Both the position numbers and the translations under genes were made by a program. The notes below the pieces were generated by a model that worked only from the letters and a program-made list of their open reading frames with translations, searched no databases and was not told the DNA's origin. Shown piece by piece: positions 3,693 to 25,344 of a stretch of DNA of 64,000 nucleotides (the first letter of the stretch is position 1; each line of letters opens with the position of its first letter). Source of the DNA: Flavobacteriales bacterium (GTDB lineage Bacteria; Bacteroidota; Bacteroidia; Palsa-965); assembly GCA_040377305.1 (NCBI GenBank), contig JBEIPA010000014.1, positions 77,780-141,779 on the forward strand, in the 5' to 3' direction.

Positions 3693-4118
3693 TTAGAAAA
3701 TCAGATTTTGTTTAGACTTCAGCACCTGAGGGTCGATGCGGTAAGCCATTAATATAAACGGAACTCCGCGCATACCGGCAATCATTTGCTGTTCATCTTC
3801 CTGCGTGAACGGCCCTTGTGCGAGGAGAAAATAATCGGCTTGATGTTGTTCAGGCACTAGCAAGCCATGTGTGCCTTTATTGCTGAGCAAAGTGTAGGTT
3901 GCTTCGAAATCGGGGTGATCCCAGGAGTACTGCGTAAAATCGGAAGTAGGTTCGCCCTTCTTCAATGCAAGACTGTACGGTTCTGTTTTCGCCAAATCAA
4001 TTTCAAGTGATGTATTCAATCCCCATGCAACACGGTGTGATTTTTCGTGAGATGATATTCCTACGAGAATAAAATCATACTCGTATTCTACTTCCAGCTT
4101 ATGGCGTTGGATGGGCAT
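3693..4118 (-). CDS. IPExxxVDY-family protein (Bacteroidetes conserved)
   Basis: LLVPEQHQADYFL motif; adjacent to pyk. Confidence 0.75.
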   Translation of the reverse strand: MPIQRHKLEVEYEYDFILVGISSHEKSHRVAWGLNTSLEIDLAKTEPYSLALKKGEPTSDFTQYSWDHPDFEATYTLLSNKGTHGLLVPEQHQADYFLLAQGPFTQEDEQQMIAGMRGVPFILMAYRIDPQVLKSKQNLIF

Positions 4119-4255
4119 TCCGGTAAAGTTAGTCATTGCCTGTGTTCTGCAAGTTATGATTACCTGCTGTTACCAACAACCCCTTGTGAACCGTTTTAAA
4201 CACATAGCATCATAGTCCTTTGTTTTCTTGCCGGGCGAAAGGAATTCATAGCTCA

Positions 4256-4298
4256 CAAGAGAATATCGCTAAGCGATATTTCTCCTGTGTTCTATGAT
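4256..4298. repeat. Dispersed palindromic repeat, copy 1 (copy 2 at 44792-44834)
   Basis: caagagaatatcgctaagcgatatttctc-tgtgttctatgat is nearly identical at both sites. Confidence 0.75.
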
Positions 4299-4342
4299 CG
4301 CGGTGCACATTAGCACCTAACGAAACCTATGATACTATGTGG

Positions 4343-4903
4343 TTAGAGTTCCGTTCGAAGTCCCGAAGCAACCGCAATGACAACAGGAATTCCGGGAAGA
4401 ATATTGGTTGACCAGTCGAGCGTTTCCGTAATCGGATAGTTGTATTCAATCTCCCCACCGTGCCACACAAATTTTTTCTGCCATTTTCCGGAAGGTGAAA
4501 GCTTGAAGTAGCCATCGTCTTCGTATCCTGAAATATTGAACCACGAACGTCGATAATACCAGAATGGCCCGAGCCCGGCGCTTATGTCGCCCGCATCGCC
4601 CATGTCAATTGTGCCGCGTAAATTAATCATCGTCATTCCGGCAAATTTTCCTGCACAGTCGCGAAAACCCGATTGGCTGGCTTTCACAGAAAAGAAGCTG
4701 TTGATTTTGTATTCACAGGTTACTGCCAATCCAAAGTGAAATGCAACCCGATTCTTCTTTCCGATCGCAGTTTTGTAGAGATGGCCGTTGAAATTGTTGT
4801 CGGTGTGAATAGAAACTCCCATGAATTTGACGCCGACGTACCACTGCGCGTAATTCTGCAAAGCGAATAAAAGAAAGGCAAACAGGAGTATCGTTCGCTT
4901 CAT
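4343..4903 (-). CDS. Hypothetical secreted/outer-membrane beta-barrel protein
   Basis: Signal peptide, alternating beta-strand pattern. Confidence 0.6.
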   Translation of the reverse strand: MKRTILLFAFLLFALQNYAQWYVGVKFMGVSIHTDNNFNGHLYKTAIGKKNRVAFHFGLAVTCEYKINSFFSVKASQSGFRDCAGKFAGMTMINLRGTIDMGDAGDISAGLGPFWYYRRSWFNISGYEDDGYFKLSPSGKWQKKFVWHGGEIEYNYPITETLDWSTNILPGIPVVIAVASGLRTEL

Positions 4904-8702: not shown

Positions 8703-10106
8703 TTACCCATCCATTCGCACGATACGCGGACTGAACTTTCCTACGATGTCGACTAAATCAACTTGCGCCTCCATCACCTGAAAAATGTCTTTGTACGCAT
8801 GTGGCGATTCATCCAGACCACCACCGATTAACGTCACGTTATTTTCTTTCAGCACAGATTTCATCTCTGCATTCGTTACGTTTTTCATTGCTGCTGTACG
8901 CGACATTTTACGTCCCGCTCCATGAGAAGCAGAGTTGATGGAAATGCTCGCACCTTTTCCGCGTACAATGAATCCCGGTGCAGTCATCGATCCCGGAATA
9001 ATTCCGAGAACGCCTTTGCCGGCAGGTGTTGCACCTTTACGATGCACGATTACATCTTTGCCGTTGAATTTTTCTTTCCATGCAAAGTTGTGGTGGTTTT
9101 CTACCATCGCGATGGGTTCAACACCAAGCGCAGCTGCAATCTTCTCGTGAATTTTGTGATGACACGCCGAAGCATAATCACCAGCGAGATTCATTGCAAG
9201 CCAATACTCTTGTCCTTCCTGAGTTGAAAGATCAAGCCACGCAAGATGTTTTGCTTCCTGCGGCAAACGACATTTCTCCATTGCCACTTTCGTGTAATGG
9301 TTCGCAATCGTTGCGCCAAGTCCGCGCGAACCGGAATGCGACAACAACGCGAGGTATCGACCTAATGGAAGATTGAACTCGTTGTTCTCATCGCTGATAT
9401 CAACAACTCCGAATTCCACAAAGTGATTTCCCGAACCGGATGTTCCCATTTGCTTCACTGCTTTCAGCTGCAGACCTTTCAGCAATGGAATTTCATCGAA
9501 CAACTTTCGGTCAGTCACTTCAAACTCTTTGTTCTCCTTGAACTCTTGTCCTGAACCAAAGAGTGTATTATCCGTAAGCACTTTGTAAAGTCCGCGCGAG
9601 TCGGTGTCGATGATCTCGTGCGGAGTCGGAAAAATACTCAGGCACATTCGGCAACCGATGTCGACGCCAACTCCATAAGGAATAATTGCGTTTTCCGTAG
9701 CGAGTACACCACCGATCGGCAATCCATAACCCTGATGCGCATCCGGCATCAAAGCACCGGCAACTGCAACCGGCAAACGAATTGCCACATCCATTTGTTT
9801 ACGCGCACCATCTTCGATCTGATCTCCACCGTAAATTGCGTAAGATCCTTGTTCGATGCGCAATGCAATTTCGGGACCTTCCGCTTCTTTCGGCTTTTCC
9901 GTCAACGCATCCGCAATCGCAGCGAGGTTCGTGTCGTCGAGATAATCCGCAGGTGCAGCAAGAATATTTTTCAGCATCTCCATCACATCTTCACGTGATG
10001 ATTTGCGGTAATACTTTTCAATGATGTTGAGGGCAATTCCCACAACGCGTCCTTGTTTGTATCCAAGTTCGCGAAGGTGATCTCCGGTGATGTTTAATTT
10101 GTTCAT
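8703..10106 (-). CDS. rtcB: RNA-splicing/repair ligase RtcB
   Basis: MPDAHQGYGLPIGG, VGVDIGC, GSGNHF, HSGSRG, HRKGAT, SASHGAGR, ESPHAYK motifs. Confidence 0.96.
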   Translation of the reverse strand: MNKLNITGDHLRELGYKQGRVVGIALNIIEKYYRKSSREDVMEMLKNILAAPADYLDDTNLAAIADALTEKPKEAEGPEIALRIEQGSYAIYGGDQIEDGARKQMDVAIRLPVAVAGALMPDAHQGYGLPIGGVLATENAIIPYGVGVDIGCRMCLSIFPTPHEIIDTDSRGLYKVLTDNTLFGSGQEFKENKEFEVTDRKLFDEIPLLKGLQLKAVKQMGTSGSGNHFVEFGVVDISDENNEFNLPLGRYLALLSHSGSRGLGATIANHYTKVAMEKCRLPQEAKHLAWLDLSTQEGQEYWLAMNLAGDYASACHHKIHEKIAAALGVEPIAMVENHHNFAWKEKFNGKDVIVHRKGATPAGKGVLGIIPGSMTAPGFIVRGKGASISINSASHGAGRKMSRTAAMKNVTNAEMKSVLKENNVTLIGGGLDESPHAYKDIFQVMEAQVDLVDIVGKFSPRIVRMDG

Positions 10107-10735: not shown

Positions 10736-10773
10736 GATTATTCTATACTAATCAATTTACAAAATTTGTTTTG

Positions 10774-10844
10774 ACGACCGACAGGGATTCGAACCCCGAT
10801 CCTCAGATTCGTATTCTGAGATTCTTCCGTTGAACTATCGATCG
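10774..10844 (-). tRNA. tRNA-Arg(ACG)
   Basis: Cloverleaf; TCAGA-ATACGAA-TCTGA anticodon arm; GGTTCGAATCC. Confidence 0.85.
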
Positions 10845-10876
10845 AAATACAGTGTCGGGATACGATCCCGACACCT

Positions 10877-11010
10877 CACAGGCAAAAAGCGAAAAGAGAC
10901 TGTTTGCATTGCTCTACCACTGAGCTACACACAACTTTCGCTATGTGGCCGGATTCGAACCGGCGTCCCATGGATTGGAAGTCGAAGTAACTCTTTTCTA
11001 CGGCACTGTT
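10877..11010 (-). ncRNA. Y-RNA-like RNA A (YrlA-like, circularly permuted tRNA cargo)
   Basis: Scaffold TGCCGTA-GAAAAGAG-TTACTTC...CTCTTTTC-GCTTTTTGC; T-arm precedes GAAA-capped acceptor stem, then D-arm. Confidence 0.85.
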
Positions 11011-11015
11011 CATTG

Positions 11016-11089
11016 GGTGTTAGATCGGTTTCGATCCGATTACCTCTTGCTTCACAAGCAAGCGCTCTCCCGAGTGAGCTACAAACACC
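11016..11089 (-). tRNA. tRNA-His(GTG) with G-1
   Basis: CTTGC-TTGTGAA-GCAAG; G-1:C73; atypical T-loop ATCGAAA. Confidence 0.85.
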
Positions 11090-11094
11090 GTGTT

Positions 11095-11178
11095 CAGTAG
11101 GCAGTTTGGCAGTAGTGCAGTTGGCAGTCAAAATATAATTCTCTGACTGCCTACTGCCCAACTGCTTACTGCCTACTG
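11095..11178. repeat. REP/REPIN-like GCAGTAG-unit inverted repeat
   Basis: Tandem cagtaggcagt units facing actgcctactg units; other copies 12557-12642, 18606-18676, 18865-18946, 19126-19201, 55773-55852. Confidence 0.85.
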
Positions 11179-11184
11179 TTCTTG

Positions 11185-11258
11185 TACTCTGTGTGGGATT
11201 CGAACCCACGTGATCTGGTCGAAAACCAGATATACTAGACCAACTATATGAACAGAGC
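11185..11258 (-). tRNA. tRNA-Glu(TTC)
   Basis: TCTGG-TTTTCGA-CCAGA; GTGGGTTCGAATCCCAC. Confidence 0.85.
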
Positions 11259-11343
11259 CTGATTGATTTGCGGATGACGCGCCGGGTTCTCTCCTTTGGA
11301 GAGTTAGAGAGGCGCGGCGCGTAATCCGCAAATCAATCTTCAG

Positions 11344-11417
11344 TCGCGACAGCAGGATTCGAACCTACATCTTCTCCAGTCCAAGTGGAGAGGCTTAGCC
11401 AATTAGCCGACCTCGCG
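11344..11417 (-). tRNA. tRNA-Pro(TGG)
   Basis: CTCCA-CTTGGAC-TGGAG; C1-G72, A73. Confidence 0.85.
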
Positions 11418-11505
11418 ATGTTGATTAGCTGATTTTTAATTTCTGATTTCTGATGCTGAAAGGTGTTACCCCAAGAGCTAATCAAAAATCAGCTAATCCT
11501 ATTTA

Positions 11506-11612
11506 TTGTGAGGAAAAAATCACAGAAAAGACGAAAGCGCCATCTTTCGATGTCAGGATTCGAACCTGTTTCTTCCTGCCACGAAGTATCTCTTCTGTTA
11601 CGTCACTCACAA
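11506..11612 (-). ncRNA. Y-RNA-like RNA B (T-arm plus mini acceptor hairpin cargo)
   Basis: TTGTGAG/CTCACAA terminal stem; TGACGTA-ACAGAAGAG-ATACTTCG; CAGGTTCGAATCCTG; CATC-GAAA-GATG. Confidence 0.8.
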
Positions 11613-11639
11613 ACTCAAAGAACAAATTCAATTTCAAAA

Positions 11640-11734
11640 TAAGCGGGCAAAAGTCAATCAGAGTCTGCCGGGATTTGAACCCGCGTCTTTCGACTTTCTA
11701 CCAAAGAAGTATCTCTGATTTACGGCACCGTTTA
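11640..11734 (-). ncRNA. Y-RNA-like RNA C (T-arm, tmRNA 3'-end-like cargo)
   Basis: TAAACGG/CCGCTTA stem; TGCCGTA-AATCAGAG-ATACTTC...CTCTGATT-GACTTTTGC; GACGCGGGTTCAAATCCCG. Confidence 0.8.
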
Positions 11735-11744
11735 CTTTTAACTA

Positions 11745-12272
11745 TTATCTCGTCGGGATCTTCAATCCCATTTTCTTCATCGCAAGCAATGCTTCTGCAT
11801 TTCCGATTGCGTCGTTGACCGGGTTGTGATCATGACGCGTTTTGCGAAACAATCGCTTCCACTCGCTGTTCAGTCCTCCATCCATTTTCATTCCACAATA
11901 CAGATCACCGATTCGTCTGCCTGAAAATCCAAACGGATTTTTTCCCAGGTAGAAATGGAAGTAATAATTAATCCACTGCCAATCGAACGCGAGGTTATCG
12001 CTGATGAATATTGCTTTGCCGTCGGATGTTGCGTTCAACCATTCGGAGAAACGTTTCATCACTTCGGCGGGCTCCTCGAACGACTCGTGTTGCCCGCGTG
12101 TGAAACCACTTACTGCAAGTGCATCCGGAATCCATTCTTTGGAAATTGGTTGCGTCTTTCCGTAGAATGTTTTCGCGAGTGTGGGTTCTATCACCACTGC
12201 ACCGAAGCAAACCATCGAATATTTATTTGGGATGGGCCCATCGGCCTCTACATCCACTACTATGTAACTCAT
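11745..12272 (-). CDS. DEDD 3'-5' exoribonuclease (RNase AS/Rv2179c-like)
   Basis: VDVEADGP, DNLAFDW, HNPVNDA motifs. Confidence 0.85.
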   Translation of the reverse strand: MSYIVVDVEADGPIPNKYSMVCFGAVVIEPTLAKTFYGKTQPISKEWIPDALAVSGFTRGQHESFEEPAEVMKRFSEWLNATSDGKAIFISDNLAFDWQWINYYFHFYLGKNPFGFSGRRIGDLYCGMKMDGGLNSEWKRLFRKTRHDHNPVNDAIGNAEALLAMKKMGLKIPTR

Positions 12273-12304
12273 TTTGTTTTTGTTTTTAATCAATTTAATA
12301 ATTT

Positions 12305-12377
12305 AAGCTGGCAACAAACTCGCAGAGGTTTTGGTCTAATTAACAGTTAGAAGTAACTCTGCAATACGGCACAGCTT
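12305..12377 (-). ncRNA. Y-RNA-like RNA D (isolated Asn anticodon stem-loop cargo)
   Basis: AAGCTG/CAGCTT stem; TGCCGTA-TTGCAGAG-TTACTTC...CTCTGCGA-GTTTGTTGC; TCTAA-CTGTTAA-TTAGA. Confidence 0.8.
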
Positions 12378-12435
12378 GCCGATGTGCCGATTTCCAATAT
12401 GCCAATATGCCGATTGGAAATACCTCAATAAAATT

Positions 12436-12553
12436 CGGAAGCAAAAAACGATTCGGGTGGGGCGTCGCAATGAGGATTTGCACCTCTTCCTGGTTTTTAC
12501 ATCAGGACCCTTGCCCCCTGTCGAGCGAAGTATCCCGGCTCTACGGCATTCCG
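12436..12553 (-). ncRNA. Y-RNA-like RNA E (D-armless tRNA-like cargo)
   Basis: CGGAA/TTCCG stem; TGCCGTA-GAGCCGGG-ATACTTCG...CCCGAATC-GTTTTTTGC; GGGGC/GCCCC stem with two hairpins. Confidence 0.75.
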
Positions 12554-12642: not shown

Positions 12643-12647
12643 ATTAA

Positions 12648-12867
12648 ACAACGGTAACTGGCAACAAGTCTGCTTTCTGCTTTCACAGAATACGGCCGTC
12701 CTATTTCTGTATTGCTACAGACAGTTGACTGGTAATCATCATCCGCATGGTGTCAGGATCTGAAATCCTGATACTGCGCACTCAGATTAACGTTCGCGAA
12801 CCACAGTTACCCGTGCATCACTACCTTAGGACCGTTATCGAAGTATGACCCGTTTACGACACGTTGT
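12648..12867 (-). ncRNA. Y-RNA-like RNA F (about 220 nt, 23S rRNA H69-like cargo)
   Basis: ACAACG/CGTTGT stem; TGTCGTA-AACGGGTC-ATACTTCG...GACTTGTT-GCCAGTTAC; contains ATAACGGTCCTAAGGTAG. Confidence 0.75.
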
Positions 12868-12987
12868 GTGATGTCAGGATCCTATCCTGACAGTGCACAT
12901 AATTTTTTCAAAGAACGTTTGTACTAACCAAGCCGTCGGGCGACCTCTCCTTCAGTGCAATTTCCGAAGGAGAGGCGTAGCCGTAAA

Positions 12988-14502
12988 CTACAACTCGAGT
13001 TGTTTTATCATCGCGATTGCATCTGTACCGTTTTCTGCAGCATACAATACGTCGAACACTTTATCTGACCAGCCCGCGATGAGTGTTACATCGTCGCGCT
13101 GCACACTGATTGGTGTGTTACCGTAACCTGCGAGGTCGAACAAGTACAGTTTCGCCATTGGCGCAATCTGTTTGTATTCTTTCCACGCCGTCTGCAACGA
13201 ATCACCGTCAGCTTTGGTATTCCACATCTGGCAGTCAGTGAACATCATCACTTTGTCCATCACAACATTGCGCTGAACAAGATCTTTGATCACCAGGTAA
13301 CCATTTGTGGCGTAACCAACTTCACCTTCCCGCTTGTAGTACTCATCAACATTCGCAAGTACTCCACGGTTAGGCATGTTGATTACCTTCCAGCGATCTC
13401 CGAACATTCCGGAAACCACTCGTTCACACTTGCTCTGCATCAGCATACCCAGTACCAGACCGATATCGAACAAATACACTTTGCTCTTCGCCGAGATTGG
13501 TTTCTGCATTGAACCCGAAACGTCACACGCAATCAACACACGTGTTTTGTAATCGAATCCGCTGATGTTTTTCGCTGAAGCTACAATTGCATCTTCCAGC
13601 GCGTTAAGTATCATCGACACGTAATCAGCTTTCAGCACTTTCACTTCACGGTATGCAGACAGGAAACGGAATGGCAACTGCTTCGATTTCGCAACCTGGT
13701 TTGCATCAGAAAGCGTATCACACACTTTTTTGATTGCATCCCATGATACACCCGCTTCAATCATGTTACGGATGTTACGCAACATCGCCATGTATCCCAG
13801 CTTACCGCTGAAGATCAGTTCTTCCCATTTCGCACGAACCGCAAGCTCTTTTGCTTTTGCATCAGCGAATTTTTGCTGACCCAAAGCAGAAAGTTCAGTT
13901 TCCCAGGTATAAGCAACAGACAGCTCTTTCGCAGCGATCTTGTTGAAGACTGCTTGCTGTTCATCACTTTTCGCTTTCGGGTGAACAAGGAACAATGCAT
14001 CACGCAACGTTACTGCCGCTTCACGGTTGTATTTCGAGAACTGGTATTCATCAAAACGATTGAACGCCTTTGCGAGTCCTTTCTGTACCTGTTTCGAAAG
14101 CTTGTTCAGTTTCTTAGTTCCCGAACGGTTGTTCGCCAGTTGGTAGTAAGCCAGAAGCTCAGTGATCTCATCAGCACGCTGAACGACACCGTTCACCGCT
14201 TTGGATACAACTATATTTCCGGAGTTACGTTTTGCAAGTTCGACTGCAAGCACCTGTGGAATAGAACGCATGTACATTTTGTTACGTGCATACACCGCAA
14301 GCTTCGCCACGAATTCAGCATCTGTCTTCTCCATGAGATCCACGATACGTTGAAGACGCTCGTTTCCTTTCTCATAGAACGAATCGCTCAGTCCTGCGGT
14401 TACTACCGCTGAATACAGTTCGAGCTCAGGAGTCATTGCGAATGCTTTTGCGCCTTCGTAATTAGTGACTGCTGTTTTACGTTTGAAGATGTTGAATTTC
14501 AT
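12988..14502 (-). CDS. Ro60/Rsr TROVE-domain RNA-binding protein with vWA domain
   Basis: NYEGAKAF N-terminus, LRDALFLVHPK, AMLRNI, LPFRFLSAY, DVSGSM (MIDAS), FTD. Confidence 0.93.
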   Translation of the reverse strand: MKFNIFKRKTAVTNYEGAKAFAMTPELELYSAVVTAGLSDSFYEKGNERLQRIVDLMEKTDAEFVAKLAVYARNKMYMRSIPQVLAVELAKRNSGNIVVSKAVNGVVQRADEITELLAYYQLANNRSGTKKLNKLSKQVQKGLAKAFNRFDEYQFSKYNREAAVTLRDALFLVHPKAKSDEQQAVFNKIAAKELSVAYTWETELSALGQQKFADAKAKELAVRAKWEELIFSGKLGYMAMLRNIRNMIEAGVSWDAIKKVCDTLSDANQVAKSKQLPFRFLSAYREVKVLKADYVSMILNALEDAIVASAKNISGFDYKTRVLIACDVSGSMQKPISAKSKVYLFDIGLVLGMLMQSKCERVVSGMFGDRWKVINMPNRGVLANVDEYYKREGEVGYATNGYLVIKDLVQRNVVMDKVMMFTDCQMWNTKADGDSLQTAWKEYKQIAPMAKLYLFDLAGYGNTPISVQRDDVTLIAGWSDKVFDVLYAAENGTDAIAMIKQLEL

Positions 14503-14571: not shown

Positions 14572-14655
14572 CGATTTATTTTAACTTTTTGTTTTAATCG
14601 CCTGATTTTCAGTTGGCATTAATTCGTTTTTTCAATCGCAACATTTATTGCGGCG

Positions 14656-14728
14656 TTGGAAAGGAAGGGCTCGAACCTTCGACCTTGTGCGTATAAGGCA
14701 CGTGCTCTTACCACTGAGCTACTCTCCA
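14656..14728 (-). tRNA. tRNA-Ile(TAT)
   Basis: CGTGC-CTTATAC-GCACA; canonical D and T arms; A73. Confidence 0.85.
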
Positions 14729-14735
14729 AGTCTTG

Positions 14736-14807
14736 CGGCGCGGATTGGACTTGAACCAATATAATCTCCCTTAACAGGGGAGAGCTCTACCATTGAGCTA
14801 CCAGGCC
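14736..14807 (-). tRNA. tRNA-Asn(GTT)
   Basis: CTCCC-CTGTTAA-GGGAG; G73. Confidence 0.88.
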
Positions 14808-14812
14808 ATTTG

Positions 14813-14885
14813 CGGTAACGATGGGATTCGAACCCACAACTTTCCGATAGACAATCGGACGCTCTAGCCGTTGAACTACGCTACC
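14813..14885 (-). tRNA. tRNA-Asp(GTC)
   Basis: TCCGA-TTGTCTA-TCGGA; G73. Confidence 0.88.
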
Positions 14886-14890
14886 ATTTG

Positions 14891-14963
14891 TGGACAAGGA
14901 AGGAATTGAACCTTCATCTTCTGATCTTCAGTCAGCCGCATTCACCGCGTTTGCTACCTGTCC
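14891..14963 (-). tRNA. tRNA-Phe(GAA)
   Basis: CTGA-CTGAAGA-TCAG; A73. Confidence 0.82.
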
Positions 14964-14969
14964 GTTTTG

Positions 14970-15043
14970 TTGACCCACCAGGGCTCGAACCTGGAACCCC
15001 CACTTTAAAAGAGCGGTGCATCTAACCATTGAGCTATGGATCA
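14970..15043 (-). tRNA. tRNA-Lys(TTT)
   Basis: CCGCT-CTTTTAA-AGTGG; A73. Confidence 0.85.
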
Positions 15044-15055
15044 ATATTTCTTCGC

Positions 15056-15111
15056 TTGTCCTCCTTCGGCAAAGCCTGTGCTGAGCGAAGTCGAAGTGCT
15101 CAGTCTGACAA
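15056..15111. repeat. REP-like element (CTGAGCGAAGTCGAAG family); partner arm at 15201-15232
   Basis: ctgagcgaagtcgaag versus cttcgactacgctcag flanking tRNA-Gln. Confidence 0.65.
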
Positions 15112-15115
15112 GTCG

Positions 15116-15186
15116 TTGTCGGAAATGGATTTGAACCACTATAGCCAGATTCAAACTCTGGTGTCCTACCATTAGACGATCCGACA
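15116..15186 (-). tRNA. tRNA-Gln(TTG)
   Basis: CCAGA-GTTTGAA-TCTGG; U1-A72. Confidence 0.85.
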
Positions 15187-18514: not shown

Positions 18515-18515
18515 G

Positions 18516-18601
18516 TTGGGTAGGCCGGATTCGAACCGACATGTTTAGCACGTGGCAGCAGATTTACAGTCTGCCCCCTTCACCAGTTTGGATACTACCC
18601 A
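18516..18601 (-). tRNA. tRNA-Tyr(GTA) copy 1
   Basis: GCAGA-CTGTAAA-TCTGC; long variable arm. Confidence 0.88.
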
Positions 18602-18682
18602 GTTTCAGTAAGCAGTTGTGCAGTTGGCGGTATCATAATTTGACTGCTTGCTGCCAGGCTGCACTACTGCCTACTGTTTCAG

Positions 18683-18765
18683 CGGAAGATATAGGAGTCG
18701 AACCCTGTCCTTTCGGACCGCCCCAGATTTCAAGTCTGGTTGACCACCATCGGTCGCTATCTTCC
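18683..18765 (-). tRNA. tRNA-Ser(TGA), imperfect T-stem
   Basis: CCAGA-CTTGAAA-TCTGG; variable arm; G73. Confidence 0.75.
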
Positions 18766-18773
18766 AATAATTG

Positions 18774-18861
18774 CGGAGAACATTGGAATTGAACCAATAG
18801 TTCACTTTCGCGAACGCACATTAGCAGTGTGCTGCAACGAGCCAATAGTTGCCTGCTCTCC
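18774..18861 (-). tRNA. tRNA-Ser(GCT)
   Basis: GCACA-CTGCTAA-TGTGC; long variable arm; G73. Confidence 0.85.
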
Positions 18862-18952
18862 TTACAGTAGGCAGTTGGGCAGTCGTTCAGTAGTCAGTCA
18901 AGTATTTTTTTGACTGCCTACTGCCAAACTGCATTACTGCTTACTGGCAAAG

Positions 18953-19026
18953 TACTCCGAAGCAGATTCGAACTGCTACTTAACGGGGCTTAACGCCGTT
19001 GTCTCTTCCAGTTGGACTACCGGAGT
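18953..19026 (-). tRNA. tRNA-Leu(TAA) lacking long variable arm
   Basis: ACGGC-GTTAAGC-CCCGT; 5-nt variable loop; A73. Confidence 0.75.
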
Positions 19027-19035
19027 AAAAATTAG

Positions 19036-19121
19036 TTGGGTAGACAGGATTCGAACCTGTACGTTTAGCACATGGCAGCAGATTTACAGTCTGCCCCCTT
19101 CACCAGTTTGGATACTACCCA
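19036..19121 (-). tRNA. tRNA-Tyr(GTA) copy 2
   Basis: Near-identical to 18516-18601. Confidence 0.88.
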
Positions 19122-19208
19122 GTTTCAGTAGGCAGTAAGCAGTTGTGCAGTTGGCAGTATCATAATTTGACTGCTTACTGCACACTGCACTGCTGCCTAC
19201 TTCTTTCG

Positions 19209-19281
19209 TAGCGATAAAGAGATTCGAACTCTTACTGAACGGTTTCTAAGACCGTTGCCTCTGCCGTTGGGCTACATCGCT
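19209..19281 (-). tRNA. tRNA-Leu(TAG) lacking long variable arm
   Basis: ACGGT-CTTAGAA-ACCGT; 5-nt variable loop; A73. Confidence 0.82.
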
Positions 19282-19727: not shown

Positions 19728-20426
19728 ATGGCTATTTCAAGAAAATACGGCCGTACATACCATTATCCATTTTCTCCCGGAACTACAAGCGATGATCGCA
19801 TCAGCCACGACTACTGGAATGATGTGACAAAAATTGCTTCGCTGATTCACACGGAAAAACTGGACGGTGAAAACAATTGCCTTAATCGTTATGGTGTTTT
19901 TGCGCGTTCGCATGCGGCCCCATCGCAATCGCCGTGGACGGCATGGTTGCGTGAACGTTGGGAGTTACTGAAACATGATCTCGGTGATCTGGAAATATTC
20001 GGCGAGAATCTTTACGCAATACATTCAATCGAATACGCGAAGCTGGAAAATCATTATTATGTTTTCGGTGTGCGGCGCGAAGATCATTGGTTGTCGTGGG
20101 AGGAAACTAAGTTCTATGCGAGTATGCTGGACTTTCCGACTGTACCTGAGATTCAACTTATTTCGACACCCATCGACCGGAAAGTATTCGAAGCCGATGT
20201 GCTTTCGATTGTTTCGCAGGAAAGTAAAATGGGAAGCCTCGATGCTTTCACCGGCAAAGTCTGCACGATGGAAGGAATTGTAACCCGCAACACCGGCGAA
20301 TATGCCGTAACTGATTTCGCGCATCATGTTTTCAAATACGTGCGAAAAAGTCACGTGAAAACAGATGCACACTGGACACGTAACTGGAGAAGATCAAAAC
20401 TGATCTGGGAACGAGCCGGCGACTAA
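19728..20426 (+). CDS. ATP-dependent RNA ligase family protein
   Basis: KYGRTYHYPFSPG, TEKLDGEN (KxDG), FGENLYA, EGIV, FKYVR. Confidence 0.88.
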   Translation: MAISRKYGRTYHYPFSPGTTSDDRISHDYWNDVTKIASLIHTEKLDGENNCLNRYGVFARSHAAPSQSPWTAWLRERWELLKHDLGDLEIFGENLYAIHSIEYAKLENHYYVFGVRREDHWLSWEETKFYASMLDFPTVPEIQLISTPIDRKVFEADVLSIVSQESKMGSLDAFTGKVCTMEGIVTRNTGEYAVTDFAHHVFKYVRKSHVKTDAHWTRNWRRSKLIWERAGD

Positions 20427-20444: not shown

Positions 20445-21557
20445 ATGTTTATGTGGACAATTTCGGATATAAAGCAATGGCAAACGCTCTACGACAAGTT
20501 CGACTGGGTGCGCGATATGCGTGGCGTTCCCCAGGATCGCGTGCATCATGCAGAAGGTGATGTGGAAGTACATACGCGCATGGTACTTGATGCGTTGGAA
20601 AATCTTCCAGACTATCAGCAACTGAATGAACAGGACAGAGAAATTCTTTGGGCTTCTGCTTTGCTGCACGATGTAGAAAAACGATCAACTACTATTCACA
20701 ATGAAGACGGACGTATATCTTCTCCCAATCACGCAAAAAAGGGTGCAGCTACAACGCGCAGTTTGTTGTACCGCAACATTCCCGCACCGTTTCATATTCG
20801 CGAAGCTGTGGTGAAGCTCGTGCGTTATCACGGCTTACCGCTGTGGGTATTCCATAAACCTGATCCGGCAAAAGCGCTAATTGCGGCAAGTCTTTCCGTG
20901 AATACGCATCACCTTAGTCTGCTCGCTGAAGCAGATGTGCTTGGAAGAGAATGCGCGGATCGTAATGAACTTCTTTATCGTGTGGAAATGTTTCGGGAAC
21001 TATGCAAAGAACAGCTCGCGTATGGAAAAGCAAAATCCTTTCCATCTGAACTCAGCAAGATGAACTATTTCCGGAAAGAAGACGGTTCGCCGGACTATGA
21101 ACCATTCGACGTTACGCAATGTGAAGTAGTTTTACTTTCAGGTTTGCCGGGATCAGGAAAAGACAATTATCTGCGGAAATATCTGAAAGAGTGGCCGGTG
21201 GTAAGCATCGATGACATTCGAAAGAAAAATAAAATCTCCCCGACGGATAAAAAAGGAAATGGCCAGGCGATACAGATGGCGAAGGAACAGGCGCGAGTAT
21301 ACCTGCGAAGCAAAACTTCATTCGTGTGGAATGCAACGAACATCACGCGATCTATGCGAGGGCAGTTGATTGATCTGTTTCTCACTTACAAAGCGAAAGT
21401 GAAGATCGTGTACGTAGAGGTTCCTTACGCCACATTGCGTAGACAAAACCGCGAACGTGAACACGTGGTTCCGGCAGCTGCATTGGAGAAATTAATCGAT
21501 AAGCTGGAGGTTCCAACGCCGGACGAAGCGCATGAGATCATATATGAAATAAAATAG
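20445..21557 (+). CDS. HD phosphohydrolase fused to P-loop polynucleotide-kinase-like domain
   Basis: HHAEGDV..HT, LLHDVEK, GLPGSGKD, WNATN. Confidence 0.88.
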   Translation: MFMWTISDIKQWQTLYDKFDWVRDMRGVPQDRVHHAEGDVEVHTRMVLDALENLPDYQQLNEQDREILWASALLHDVEKRSTTIHNEDGRISSPNHAKKGAATTRSLLYRNIPAPFHIREAVVKLVRYHGLPLWVFHKPDPAKALIAASLSVNTHHLSLLAEADVLGRECADRNELLYRVEMFRELCKEQLAYGKAKSFPSELSKMNYFRKEDGSPDYEPFDVTQCEVVLLSGLPGSGKDNYLRKYLKEWPVVSIDDIRKKNKISPTDKKGNGQAIQMAKEQARVYLRSKTSFVWNATNITRSMRGQLIDLFLTYKAKVKIVYVEVPYATLRRQNREREHVVPAAALEKLIDKLEVPTPDEAHEIIYEIK

Positions 21558-23008: not shown

Positions 23009-23623
23009 TCAGAGCGGCTCGCGTATTATTTTACCCGCATTTCCCCTCTGCAACGAATGGTGCTCCAGCCATTGCGACCTTTGTTGCGCGTTCAATTCAT
23101 CGACATGCATACCGAGCAGTTTATTCTTCAAACGTTCAGTAGCTGCTTTTTTATTCAACATCTGCGAACGTTCCTCTGAAGCCGTAACACTGATTCCGCT
23201 TGGAACATGCGTAGCACGAACTGCTGATTCCGTTTTGTTCACATGCTGTCCACCGGGACCTGATGCGCGCATGGTTTGATACGTAACGTCTTTCTCTTTC
23301 CATTCAGGAAAAACGGATACATCATAAACGTGGATGCCCGCAAACCAATTTTTTCGTTTGTGGTTTTTCCGGAACGGACTCTGCGCAATCCACTGCACGG
23401 TTCCTTCCCACTCTATATAGAACGAAGACACGTTTTCTCCTCTGATCCGGATCAGTGCCGACAACAACGTATCATCCGGCTTCCCGGGAACAAGCTCAAT
23501 GATTTCCACACCGAGCTGTTCCCGTTCTGCCGCTTTCGTAATCTTCTTAAGAAGAAGCGCCACAACTCTTTCGCATTCTGCCGGACCTTTGCCGGAAGTT
23601 ATCTGCATGATTTTTTCTTTCAT
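23009..23623 (-). CDS. prfH: Peptide chain release factor H
   Basis: QITSGKGPAEC, GTVQWIAQSPFR..HKRKNWF, SGPGGQHVNKTESAVR. Confidence 0.95.
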   Translation of the reverse strand: MKEKIMQITSGKGPAECERVVALLLKKITKAAEREQLGVEIIELVPGKPDDTLLSALIRIRGENVSSFYIEWEGTVQWIAQSPFRKNHKRKNWFAGIHVYDVSVFPEWKEKDVTYQTMRASGPGGQHVNKTESAVRATHVPSGISVTASEERSQMLNKKAATERLKNKLLGMHVDELNAQQRSQWLEHHSLQRGNAGKIIREPL

Positions 23624-23628
23624 CGTTT

Positions 23629-25035
23629 CTATTCTTTATTCATGCGTACAATCTTCGGCGTAAACTTTCCGTGAACCTCCACGAGATCCTGCTGTGCCTT
23701 CATCACGTCATCGATGTCTTTGTATGCAAGAGGCGATTCTTCAGAACTTCCTCCGACCATCGTTACATCTGCAGCATTCAGCATTTGTCGTAATCCGGAA
23801 TTCGTAATAGATTCCTTCGCTTTTTTACGCGACATTTTTCTGCCCGCTCCATGCGAAGCAGAGTTTAGTGATTCCGGAACTCCTTTGCCACACACGAGAT
23901 ATCCACCGTGAATCATGTTACCAGGAATAATTCCAAGCTCGCCTTTGTGCGCCGGCGTAGCACCTTTACGATGAACAATCATCTCTGCTCCATCTTCCAT
24001 CGTCTCTTTCCATGCAAAGTTGTGATGATTCTCTACTTTCGCAACTGGTTTAATTCCGAGTGCACGAGAGAGATTGATGTGAATCCTGTCGTGACACGCT
24101 TTCGCGTAATCGCCTGCAAGATTCATACTCAGCCAATATTCCTGTCCTTCCGCGCTGGTGAGATCAAGCCACGCCATGTGTTGTGCATTGCGCGGAAGCT
24201 TGCACACGTCCATCGCAACATCCGTGTAGTGCTTTGCGATTGTTGCACCCAATCCGCGTGAACCGGAATGCGACAAGAGTGCAACATAATTTCCTGCCGC
24301 CATGCCCAGTGTATTTTCCTCATTGAGTTCAATCACACCAAACTCTACGAAGTGATTTCCTCCACCCGATGATCCCAGCTGTCTGACTGCTTTACCATGC
24401 AATTTTTTCAGCAGTTGCGTTTCATTGAACGACGGATCATCAAGCACATCATGATCCTGCGCGAATTCCAGACATCCTTCCATTCCGAAGTGCGTGTAAT
24501 CTTTCAGCGCCATTTTCAATTCGTGCCGGTTATGTTCAAGATACTTTTCCGGCAAATCAAAAATGGAAAGCGCCATGCGACAACCAATGTCAACACCAAC
24601 TCCAAATGGAATTACTGCATTCTCCGCAGCAAGCACACCTCCAATCGGCAAACCGAATCCGCTGTGCGCATCAGGCATCAGCGCTCCTCGTCTGCTTACC
24701 GGTAAGCTCAACGCAATTTCCATTTGCTGAATTGCTGAGTACTCGATGTGTTGACGTCCGTAGATTTTCACCGGAGCCAACTCGCTGAGCAATTCATGCG
24801 TGCGATACTTTTTGTCGGGTAATCTTTCCATGAACGTAGACGCCAGTTTCGACAACACTCCATCGCCCAGAAATTCTTCCGGATTTGCTTTCACCTCACA
24901 GAACAATTTCAGCACCTCTTCCTTTGCAGTGTGCTTGAAATGTTGCGACGCGATGATCACTGCCAGACTTTTCGATGTATTGTGATGAAAGCCCATGCGA
25001 TCGAGATCTTTACTTTTAACTTTATTCTTACTCAT
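23629..25035 (-). CDS. rtcB: RtcB-family ligase coupled to PrfH (second copy)
   Basis: MPDAH, GVDIGC, GNHF, HSGSRG, HRKGATP, SHGAGR; likely start MSKNKV. Confidence 0.93.
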   Translation of the reverse strand: MSKNKVKSKDLDRMGFHHNTSKSLAVIIASQHFKHTAKEEVLKLFCEVKANPEEFLGDGVLSKLASTFMERLPDKKYRTHELLSELAPVKIYGRQHIEYSAIQQMEIALSLPVSRRGALMPDAHSGFGLPIGGVLAAENAVIPFGVGVDIGCRMALSIFDLPEKYLEHNRHELKMALKDYTHFGMEGCLEFAQDHDVLDDPSFNETQLLKKLHGKAVRQLGSSGGGNHFVEFGVIELNEENTLGMAAGNYVALLSHSGSRGLGATIAKHYTDVAMDVCKLPRNAQHMAWLDLTSAEGQEYWLSMNLAGDYAKACHDRIHINLSRALGIKPVAKVENHHNFAWKETMEDGAEMIVHRKGATPAHKGELGIIPGNMIHGGYLVCGKGVPESLNSASHGAGRKMSRKKAKESITNSGLRQMLNAADVTMVGGSSEESPLAYKDIDDVMKAQQDLVEVHGKFTPKIVRMNKE

Positions 25036-25192
25036 TTGTTTCTTCGTTGTTGAATTTAAGTTCTTTGAATTCTCTTCCCACTGTAAGCCGAATCCGTTGC
25101 TTCTCCTCTTGTGTCTTTCGGATCTGAGTTCTTCTTCGTTTTGTTCTGAACCTTCCGGACAAGACATAGGAATCCCATGTGGCTGTTGCCAT
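25028..25192 (-). CDS. Small Arg/Lys-rich protein (54 aa), stop overlaps rtcB start
   Basis: MATATWDSYVLSGRFRTKRRRTQIRKTQEEKQRIRLTVGREFKELKFNNEETNE; A-rich start context; ATGAGTAA overlap. Confidence 0.6.
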   Translation of the reverse strand: MATATWDSYVLSGRFRTKRRRTQIRKTQEEKQRIRLTVGREFKELKFNNEETNE

Positions 25193-25344
25193 TGTTTTTT
25201 GTTGTGTTGAATAAACAGTGAATTATTCCGATGAATCAGAAGACCTGCAAATGCAACCACGGGCCACAGAAATTCTGTAGTTAGTCAGCGCCGACTATGA
25301 AAACTTTATTCGTAAAAAATGGAAATAGAATTCAAAGCCGCGCT

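Follow-up and report, generated by a model that had tools for sequence, protein, structure and literature searches.

Bacterial Y RNAs consist of a Ro60-binding stem and an effector module, with most YrlA RNAs resembling circularly permuted tRNAs, according to excerpts of one preprint (bioRxiv 10.1101/312249), and excerpts of PMC4201824 give the 5'-strand word as GNCGAAN0-1G. In the Deinococcus RYPER complex (Rsr-Y RNA-PNPase), the Y RNA Yrn1 is described in parts of the same two sources as a tether between Ro60 and an effector whose targets are structured RNAs, rRNA among them (PMC4201824; bioRxiv 10.1101/312249), and excerpts of PMC7790460 report that YrlA is left uncut by an anticodon nuclease and propose it as a competitive inhibitor. 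The cargos of the described bacterial Y RNAs are tRNA-like. Mimicry of rRNA sites is a property of ribosomal-protein leaders, the cis-acting mRNA leaders of ribosomal-protein operons. In the present study, a 64,000-nt stretch of DNA from a Flavobacteriales bacterium (hereafter the window) was analyzed, and a predicted RNA on its minus strand was found to combine a Y-type closing stem with a cargo that, judging from sequence and modelled fold, is probably a shrunken, circularly permuted copy of the junction of helices 67 to 71 (H67-H71) of 23S rRNA. Its parts, with rRNA positions in what we take to be E. coli 23S numbering anchored on the H69/H70 stretch, are as follows.

12647..12870, minus strand: predicted RNA, 224 nt, with Y-type closing stem and permuted 23S H67-H71 cargo; ends set by the 5'/3' duplex and by alignments A1 (common type) and A2 (window type)
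12847..12870, minus strand: closing stem 5' strand (putatively Ro60-binding), with GTGTCGTA at 12862-12855, a motif found in six elements at the locus
12839..12846, minus strand: unpaired linker ATACTTCG, common to the array, directly followed by the cargo
12821..12838, minus strand: 18-mer equal to 23S ~1916-1933, comprising the H69 3' strand (12835-12830) and then the H70 5' strand (12825-12819)
12802..12815, minus strand: H71-like hairpin of 5 bp with a GTAA loop, 7 nt the same as 23S H71; pair probability 1.0
12793..12798, minus strand: 3' strand CGCGAA of the H70-like pairing (RNAalifold), its changes being one-sided G-C/G-U ones only
12787..12791, minus strand: H67-like 3' strand, with one mismatch in 4/5 window-type copies (alignment and fold)
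12736..12786, minus strand: variable cap replacing H64-H66, with an inserted palindrome (12774-12750) resembling repetitive extragenic palindromes (REP-like) in the window copy
12731..12735, minus strand: H67-like 5' strand TTACC (fold and pair-change counts)
12698..12729, minus strand: shortened H68-like arm (fold and pair-change counts)
12691..12697, minus strand: H69 5' strand GGCCGTA, ~1906-1912 (23S comparison and fold)
12675..12690, minus strand: extra hairpin at the permutation joint, with no rRNA counterpart (fold)
12647..12670, minus strand: closing stem 3' strand (5'/3' duplex and fold)
12988..14502, minus strand: Ro60/TROVE gene, 504 aa, 118 nt upstream of the RNA (Pfam TROVE E 2e-30, vWA_Ro60)

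Like YrlA (RF02553), the element lies on the same strand as ro60 and within 4 kb of it, its two termini pair to form a stem holding a word that approximates GNCGAAN0-1G (as given in excerpts of PMC4201824), and a translation RNA in circularly permuted order makes up its other module; moreover, sister elements at this locus score with the YrlA model below threshold. It differs from YrlA in that the cargo is the 23S H67-H71 junction and not a tRNA, D and T arms are absent, the motif reads GNCGUA, and the mimic spans ~200-240 nt against ~110 nt. The family consensus GNCGUAG is one change from the Y RNA word and the window copy, GUCGUAAA, two changes, and neither an RF02553 match at E<=1 nor a tRNA call was obtained over the element. 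The element shares two genomic hallmarks of Y RNAs, ro60 proximity on the same strand and a long end-pairing stem, and is not a YrlA. Yrn1 in RYPER offers a model for a Y RNA tethering Ro60 to an effector (same excerpts), whereas sequence likeness to it was not demonstrated and no PNPase gene occurs at the window locus. As in ribosomal-protein leaders, a non-ribosomal RNA copies an rRNA site, there to catch a protein, whereas the mimic stands alone and presents five helices, in permuted order, on a handle of the Ro60 type. The core of 23S domain IV (RF02541) is matched by 18-29 identical nt at H69/H70 (hereafter the seed), by the same helix nesting and, in a hand-set register, by ~56-65% identity where positions beyond the seed could be anchored on helices; differences are the permutation, the short H68, the replacement of H64-H66, the removal of 1938-1944 and, in the common form, an extra hairpin between H70 and H67. 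No description of an rRNA-mimic Y RNA was found in full-text literature searches, whose range did not include two Y RNA reviews. An rRNA cargo would show the Ro60 handle to be modular and would tie Ro60 directly to the ribosome subunit interface.

The 23S rRNA match, its family and its linkage to ro60

On the minus strand, the 18-mer ATAACGGTCCTAAGGTAG occupies 12838-12821, the 8-mer CGGCCGTA 12698-12691 and TGCACG 12817-12812, 3 nt past the 18-mer, just as a preliminary description of the locus had reported, and both longer words are present in Bacteroidota 23S genes. The window's genome (G000; 5.18 Mb in 60 contigs) contains no assembled 23S gene detectable with RF02541 and no second copy of the 18-mer. 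In place of its own unassembled 23S, the comparison drew on the 23S genes of five other genomes. All five of these Bacteroidota genes contain the H69/H70 stretch; three of them were tested for shared words, and in each no word longer than the 18-mer was common to element and gene, the 8-mer lying 11 nt upstream of it. Over the element, no Rfam family was matched at gathering or at E<=1, and no colinear match to the 23S model was found there or elsewhere in the genome, the order being permuted, unlike that of an rRNA gene or pseudogene.

An 18-mer shared with 16S plus 23S rRNA is expected by chance at ~1.5e-5 per 230-nt element and ~0.008 per 64-kb window; with a chance of ~0.8% per window, one window alone is not decisive, and the conserved family decides. 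A chance match or an assembly chimera with rDNA would draw on that expectation and on the lack of assembled rRNA in this genome, and is refuted by independent homologs at 41 of 103 genome loci, including complete genomes (L088, L106), by metagenome and viral copies and by covariation, leaving it a negligible probability. The 103 loci came from a scan for scaffold and seed together in which each species was represented by a single genome; the 41 members are mostly Bacteroidota by title, four being titled Myxococcota or Deltaproteobacteria and one Verrucomicrobia. A metagenome scan yielded 37 loci, with ~20 clear and 6 divergent members by eye, and viral contigs yielded 2 clear members among 120 matches to the bare 15-mer; a search of cultured phage records with the viral-type copy gave no match.

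Linkage to ro60 was strict. Among 80 loci with long flanks, Ro60 lay within 4 kb on the same strand in 26/30 members versus 0/50 chance matches, and within the flanks examined Ro60 was found at 29 of 34 loci, WYL at 6 and RtcB at 4. Conservation beside ro60, which the preliminary description had put forward for testing, is supported. A seed-free query, restricted to the 3' 165 nt to avoid seed bias, matched 38/240 genomes in the genus of G061 and 6/91 in that of G062; in the former, reading by eye placed every one of the 38 matching genomes in the Ro60-bearing set of 174, and the 66 genomes that lack Ro60 contributed no match. The same search across the family of G061 was uninformative (1 clear match in 251 genomes). 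The exact seed was confined to the window's own genome in a phylum sample of 401 and occurred in 3/34 genomes of its own family, where the G010 hit is a chance match; none of the conclusions draws on G012. As for other rRNA cargos, 23S 1900-1925 was the only 23S or 16S bin enriched among 286 distinct scaffold elements (38 word matches; next bin 5), and no 16S bin ranked in the top 25.

Fold, covariation and conservation of the cargo

Of 43 distinct extracted copies, 31 went into an alignment of the common type (A1) and 5 into one of the window type (A2), and 7 were excluded (three with long inserts, one without a hairpin and three near-duplicates). RNAalifold, run on these homologs without rRNA input, folded A2 into the closing stem, an H69 formed by the 5' seed and 3' GGCCGU, an H70-like helix around an H71-like hairpin, an H67-like helix shutting the variable cap, and a short H68-like arm; this nesting is that of 23S rRNA if one starts at the H69 loop and goes round until the 5' strand of H69 is reached (cf. 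the Rfam 23S structure). In A1, H70, H71, H67 and H68 were recovered as in A2, the upper half of H69 formed a local hairpin, and one extra hairpin was present. The fold nesting and the family thus support the earlier idea of a circularly permuted 23S mimic with swapped H69 strands, and they widen it: H69 with the start of H70 had been proposed as the copied part, whereas the whole H67-H71 junction appears to be copied. Likewise, H71 had tentatively been considered deleted, and TGCACG is instead the 5' arm of the H71-like hairpin, with CGCGAA (12798-12793) as the counterpart of 1964-1970.

When A1 was placed on the rRNA-derived structure, 98.6% of cells were paired and double changes occurred at 25/51 pairs (31 distinct sequences), a strong covariation signal reached by 0/500 shuffles, with slid partners only 31-46% paired. 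In A1, double changes were found at 11/16 closing-stem pairs, 4/5 H71 pairs and 3/5 H67 pairs, and H68 also carried them; in A2, 95.8% of cells were paired, with double changes at 5/53 pairs. For the window copy, pair probabilities of the closing stem were 0.8-0.9, and the fold z of the 224-nt element (12647-12870) was -2.4. The alternative pairing GGTAACTG/CAGTTACC was tried and rejected, having probability 0 in 5/5 window-type copies.

Helix limits for the comparison with 23S rRNA were taken from the Rfam structure, which leaves most H70 pairs undrawn, the H70 pair identities, on which a literature search gave no paper, being those we assume for rRNA. Outside the seed, and with seed-paired positions removed, the window copy equals 23S at 22/39 helix-anchored positions in a register set by hand from the helices, compared with a shuffle mean of 9.7 (2/20,000 shuffles reach 22) and 5-13 in shifted registers; in A1, 30/31 rows match at 19-24 of 36-37 positions, the misaligned last row at 15. 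A metagenome copy, L155, has a second exact 23S match of 15 nt, to 1895-1909, at the end equivalent to the H68 arm. Topology and helix-anchored identity counts thus give good support, with the hand-set register as a caveat, to a likely rRNA-like character of the non-seed parts. A natural 150-nt copy of H67-H71 would be a ready model for junction folding and drug studies.

Conservation was assessed in the seed-free set (36 loci, 34 parsed, 33 distinct copies). The 16-nt core 1919-1934 was exact in 29/33 copies and carried one change in 4; this H69-stem/H70 stretch is near-invariant. By contrast with the core, the loop region 1910-1918 was intact in 15/33 copies, substituted in 10 and affected by deletions in 8; C1914 was A in 9/33 copies and T in 1, with deletions in 8, and U1917-A1919 was mostly retained. 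The window type lacks 1913-1915 and pairs the full H69 stem instead, for which reason the earlier statement that the helix is opened at its loop holds for the window copy and its subtype. It does not hold for the common form, where a loop is present 5' and the opening falls between 1908 and 1909. In none of 69 rows (overlapping sets) does UUCCU come after the core, and excerpts of PMC5408214 describe this site as cut by MazF-mt3 and MazF-mt6, the latter only on free 50S. Furthermore, the stems covary, while in different phyla and in viral contigs the unpaired or non-canonically paired positions within 1925-1934 are the same as in rRNA. Retention of the core, freedom in the H69 loop and removal of the MazF site would together amount to a map of the features that a partner reads.

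These data bear on two other accounts of the cargo. A decoy for proteins that read or modify the H69 loop (RluD, RlmH, ribosome recycling factor, release factors or the C1914 pocket of PrfH), as the preliminary description had proposed, could rely on the exact loop in the 15 seed-free copies, with its possible 3-bp hairpin, and on the binding of C1914 by PrfH in excerpts of PMC9304027; with the loop being the least conserved part, C1914 replaced or deleted as above and 1913-1915 missing from the window type, this account is improbable. Alternatively, a piece of 23S captured in a Y scaffold may have been kept as a stable cap, its compact fold protecting the RNA or gating the Ro60 ring with no specific partner. 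A protective role has been proposed for the YrlA tRNA fold (excerpts of PMC4201824), the cargo is patchy (38/174 Ro60-bearing genomes) and insertions are tolerated; since stability alone needs no identity at the unpaired 1925-1934 positions, which match rRNA across phyla and viral contigs over covarying stems, the stable cap is rather unlikely.

Possible partner and mode of action

By analogy with YrlA, the Y-type RNA may bind Ro60 and serve as a decoy or tether, itself uncleavable, for an enzyme whose docking site is the H69-stem/H70/H71 core of the free 50S subunit, a reading that we hold at about an even chance. Ro60 would grip the closing stem, as with YrlA, and the cargo would fold like the H69-stem/H70/H71/H67/H68 core. 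The partner would read the core rather than the H69 loop, as the loop is variable or lost while 1919-1934 is near-invariant. The RNA would escape consumption, given that the 1939-1944 stretch cut by MazF-type toxins is always missing, and a nuclease or decay enzyme could in this way be held on the Ro60 ring. The logic of YrlA fits the mimic in that the target body is kept and cut-prone parts are variable or removed, which favours a decoy or tether. A decay cut near H71 of E. coli 23S plays no part in this argument, as no paper on it was found. The element would be an optional cartridge, placed in an array of tRNA-like ones, and the array would belong to an RNA-repair island whose other features are listed below.

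10880..12549, minus strand: five sister elements with the same scaffold, starting at 12549, 12372, 11728, 11606 and 11006, amid tRNA genes
8703..10106, minus strand: RtcB RNA ligase gene, downstream of the array
19728..20426, plus strand: RNA ligase gene
20445..21557, plus strand: HD/AAA_33 protein gene
23009..23623, minus strand: PrfH-like gene with an RF-1 domain, the name PrfH being suggested by that domain beside RtcB
23629..25260, minus strand: second RtcB gene

Genes for a metallophosphoesterase, a 3'-5' exonuclease and a WYL regulator also lie near the locus. The subunit interface of the ribosome is made up by H67-H71, and a miniature 50S face could instead dock on free 30S subunits through bridge mimics, bringing Ro60 and repair or decay enzymes to damaged small subunits. 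The PrfH-like gene and the two RtcB genes in the window and the retention of U1917-A1919 in most copies agree with such docking, as does the repair of dissociated 30S by RtcB2 after PrfH rescue reported in excerpts of PMC9304027. The H69 loop of the main bridge is altered in 18/33 copies and missing in the window type, the H71 stem sequence is free to vary, and RtcB is found in just 4/34 flanks, making 30S docking quite unlikely.

Several observations weigh against the reading of the RNA as a Ro60-bound mimic whose core is read by a partner. H69 and H70 show no double changes, only one-sided ones (G-U to A-U in 10/31), and the G013 copy has a mismatch in H69. The GGCCG/CGGTC pairing, proposed earlier for H69, has a real competitor in GTCCTA/TAGGAC: in single-sequence ensembles H69 stands at 0.54 against 0.29 in the window copy and at 0.04 against 0.73 in L002, and it prevails at ~0.8 in the other three window-type copies. 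Ungapped, unanchored two-block profiles of the non-seed parts fail to single out domain IV among ~11,000 rRNA positions: two type-A blocks rank at 15-60, the third at 4-9 and off register, and the window type at 1-21. This outcome is weak, and the identity count therefore hinges on the hand-set register. A Ro60 match is lacking in the flank of 4/30 members (2 Myxococcota, 2 with short flanks), and the exact seed occurs in 0/23 other Ro60-bearing and 0/377 Ro60-free genomes of the phylum sample, so the element is optional. No partner gene tracking the mimic across lineages was found at the 34 loci, only Ro60 being near-universal, and kin are not independent in any of the family counts. RNA contigs from 3/4 libraries (2 studies) cover the cargo of the L055 homolog (spans 3992-4243, 4003-4245 and 4005-4487; 2-9 differences), weak evidence that carries no strand, ends or level and no DNA-run control; among the contigs listed, none spans the 5' stem strand, one ends in adapter at the cargo start, which was not counted as processing, and in run X4 the listed seed matches are rRNA contigs only.

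A DNA-level role, as a decoy or target of an rDNA-specific homing endonuclease or recombinase, was also considered, the I-CeuI site presumably spanning the H69/H70 stretch. It gains from the ~77/120 viral-contig matches in which the H69 3'-strand 15-mer directly follows a hairpin and GC(A/G)CCT, without the Y scaffold or surrounding rRNA (e.g., L190, L249-L253, L258, L260, L262-L264, L268, L270-L272, L274 and L276-L278, with the match at ~1501 or 301). The long-range covariation over 200 nt, the mimicry of helices far beyond the site, the shared RNA scaffold and the absence of the site's 5' half from the window type make this role highly improbable for the Y-type RNA. The viral 15-mer belongs to a separate conserved mobile-DNA element reusing this 23S stretch, which may be a DNA-level site.

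Returning to the Ro60-held mimic, a wider and tentative picture would have Ro60 loaded, in bacteria and some phages, with interchangeable mimics of the translation machine, this cartridge being a free-standing mini 50S interface that would either dock on small subunits or catch some class of ribosome-cutting nucleases directed against the H69-H71 core; it would then be dedicated to ribosome defence and also represent a protein-free domain IV minimised by nature, a picture that we regard as possible and rather doubtful.

Further observations on the locus and its relatives

The Y-type scaffold assumed in the preliminary description was confirmed as common to six elements, all of which open with GTG(C/T)CGTA-N8-TACTTC between 12862 and 11006. 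Several sister elements carry a T-arm-like cargo, and the last scored 39.8 bits (E 1e-6) against the YrlA model RF02553, below the gathering score of 69. The sister element at 12549-12440 (minus strand) combines a loop of the CGA type with a long variable arm and a T-arm-like hairpin, resembling a serine-tRNA mimic, with homologs in at least six relatives. Promoter and terminator scans gave only chance-level results. Fifteen tRNA genes form three clusters (10773-11417, 14655-15186 and 18515-19281) around ro60 and the repair genes, several being non-canonical (e.g., Ile-TAT). The cap insertion of the window copy is missing from 4/4 close homologs, and its REP-like palindrome has 14 copies in the window's genome versus 0 for a control, and it occurs again just upstream of the RNA (~12891-12872). 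A long GGCAGT-rich palindrome is present in two copies (11093-11173 and ~12630-12560), gives spurious Rfam microRNA matches and recurs elsewhere in the genome.

Among the relatives, L148 and L155 are compact versions nearest to real 23S rRNA, and L046, L061, L112, L125 and L144 are GC-rich Myxococcota-type copies with a 29-nt 23S match and no Ro60 match within the examined flanks. A subtype with the TCCGTAGTAA scaffold and a much enlarged H68 arm comprises L141, L143, L146, L149, L161, L170, L171, L213 and L265; two of its copies are on viral contigs, and a Ro60 match was found in 0/5 flanks checked. In G029, the scaffold element L008 (~1745-1880) holds a cargo that is neither tRNA-like nor H69-like, by eye faintly resembling the 3' region of 16S rRNA, with no 11-mer match. 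Further viral matches (L179, L187, L199, L238, L239, L255, L257, L261, L269, L273 and L275) reach the GGTA of 23S, several of them after a terminator-like hairpin. Finally, a 110-aa Peptidase_S24-like gene recurs close to the mimic across several lineages (L070, L075, L106, L166 and L172), at 5/34 loci versus 0/28 comparison loci with shorter flanks.
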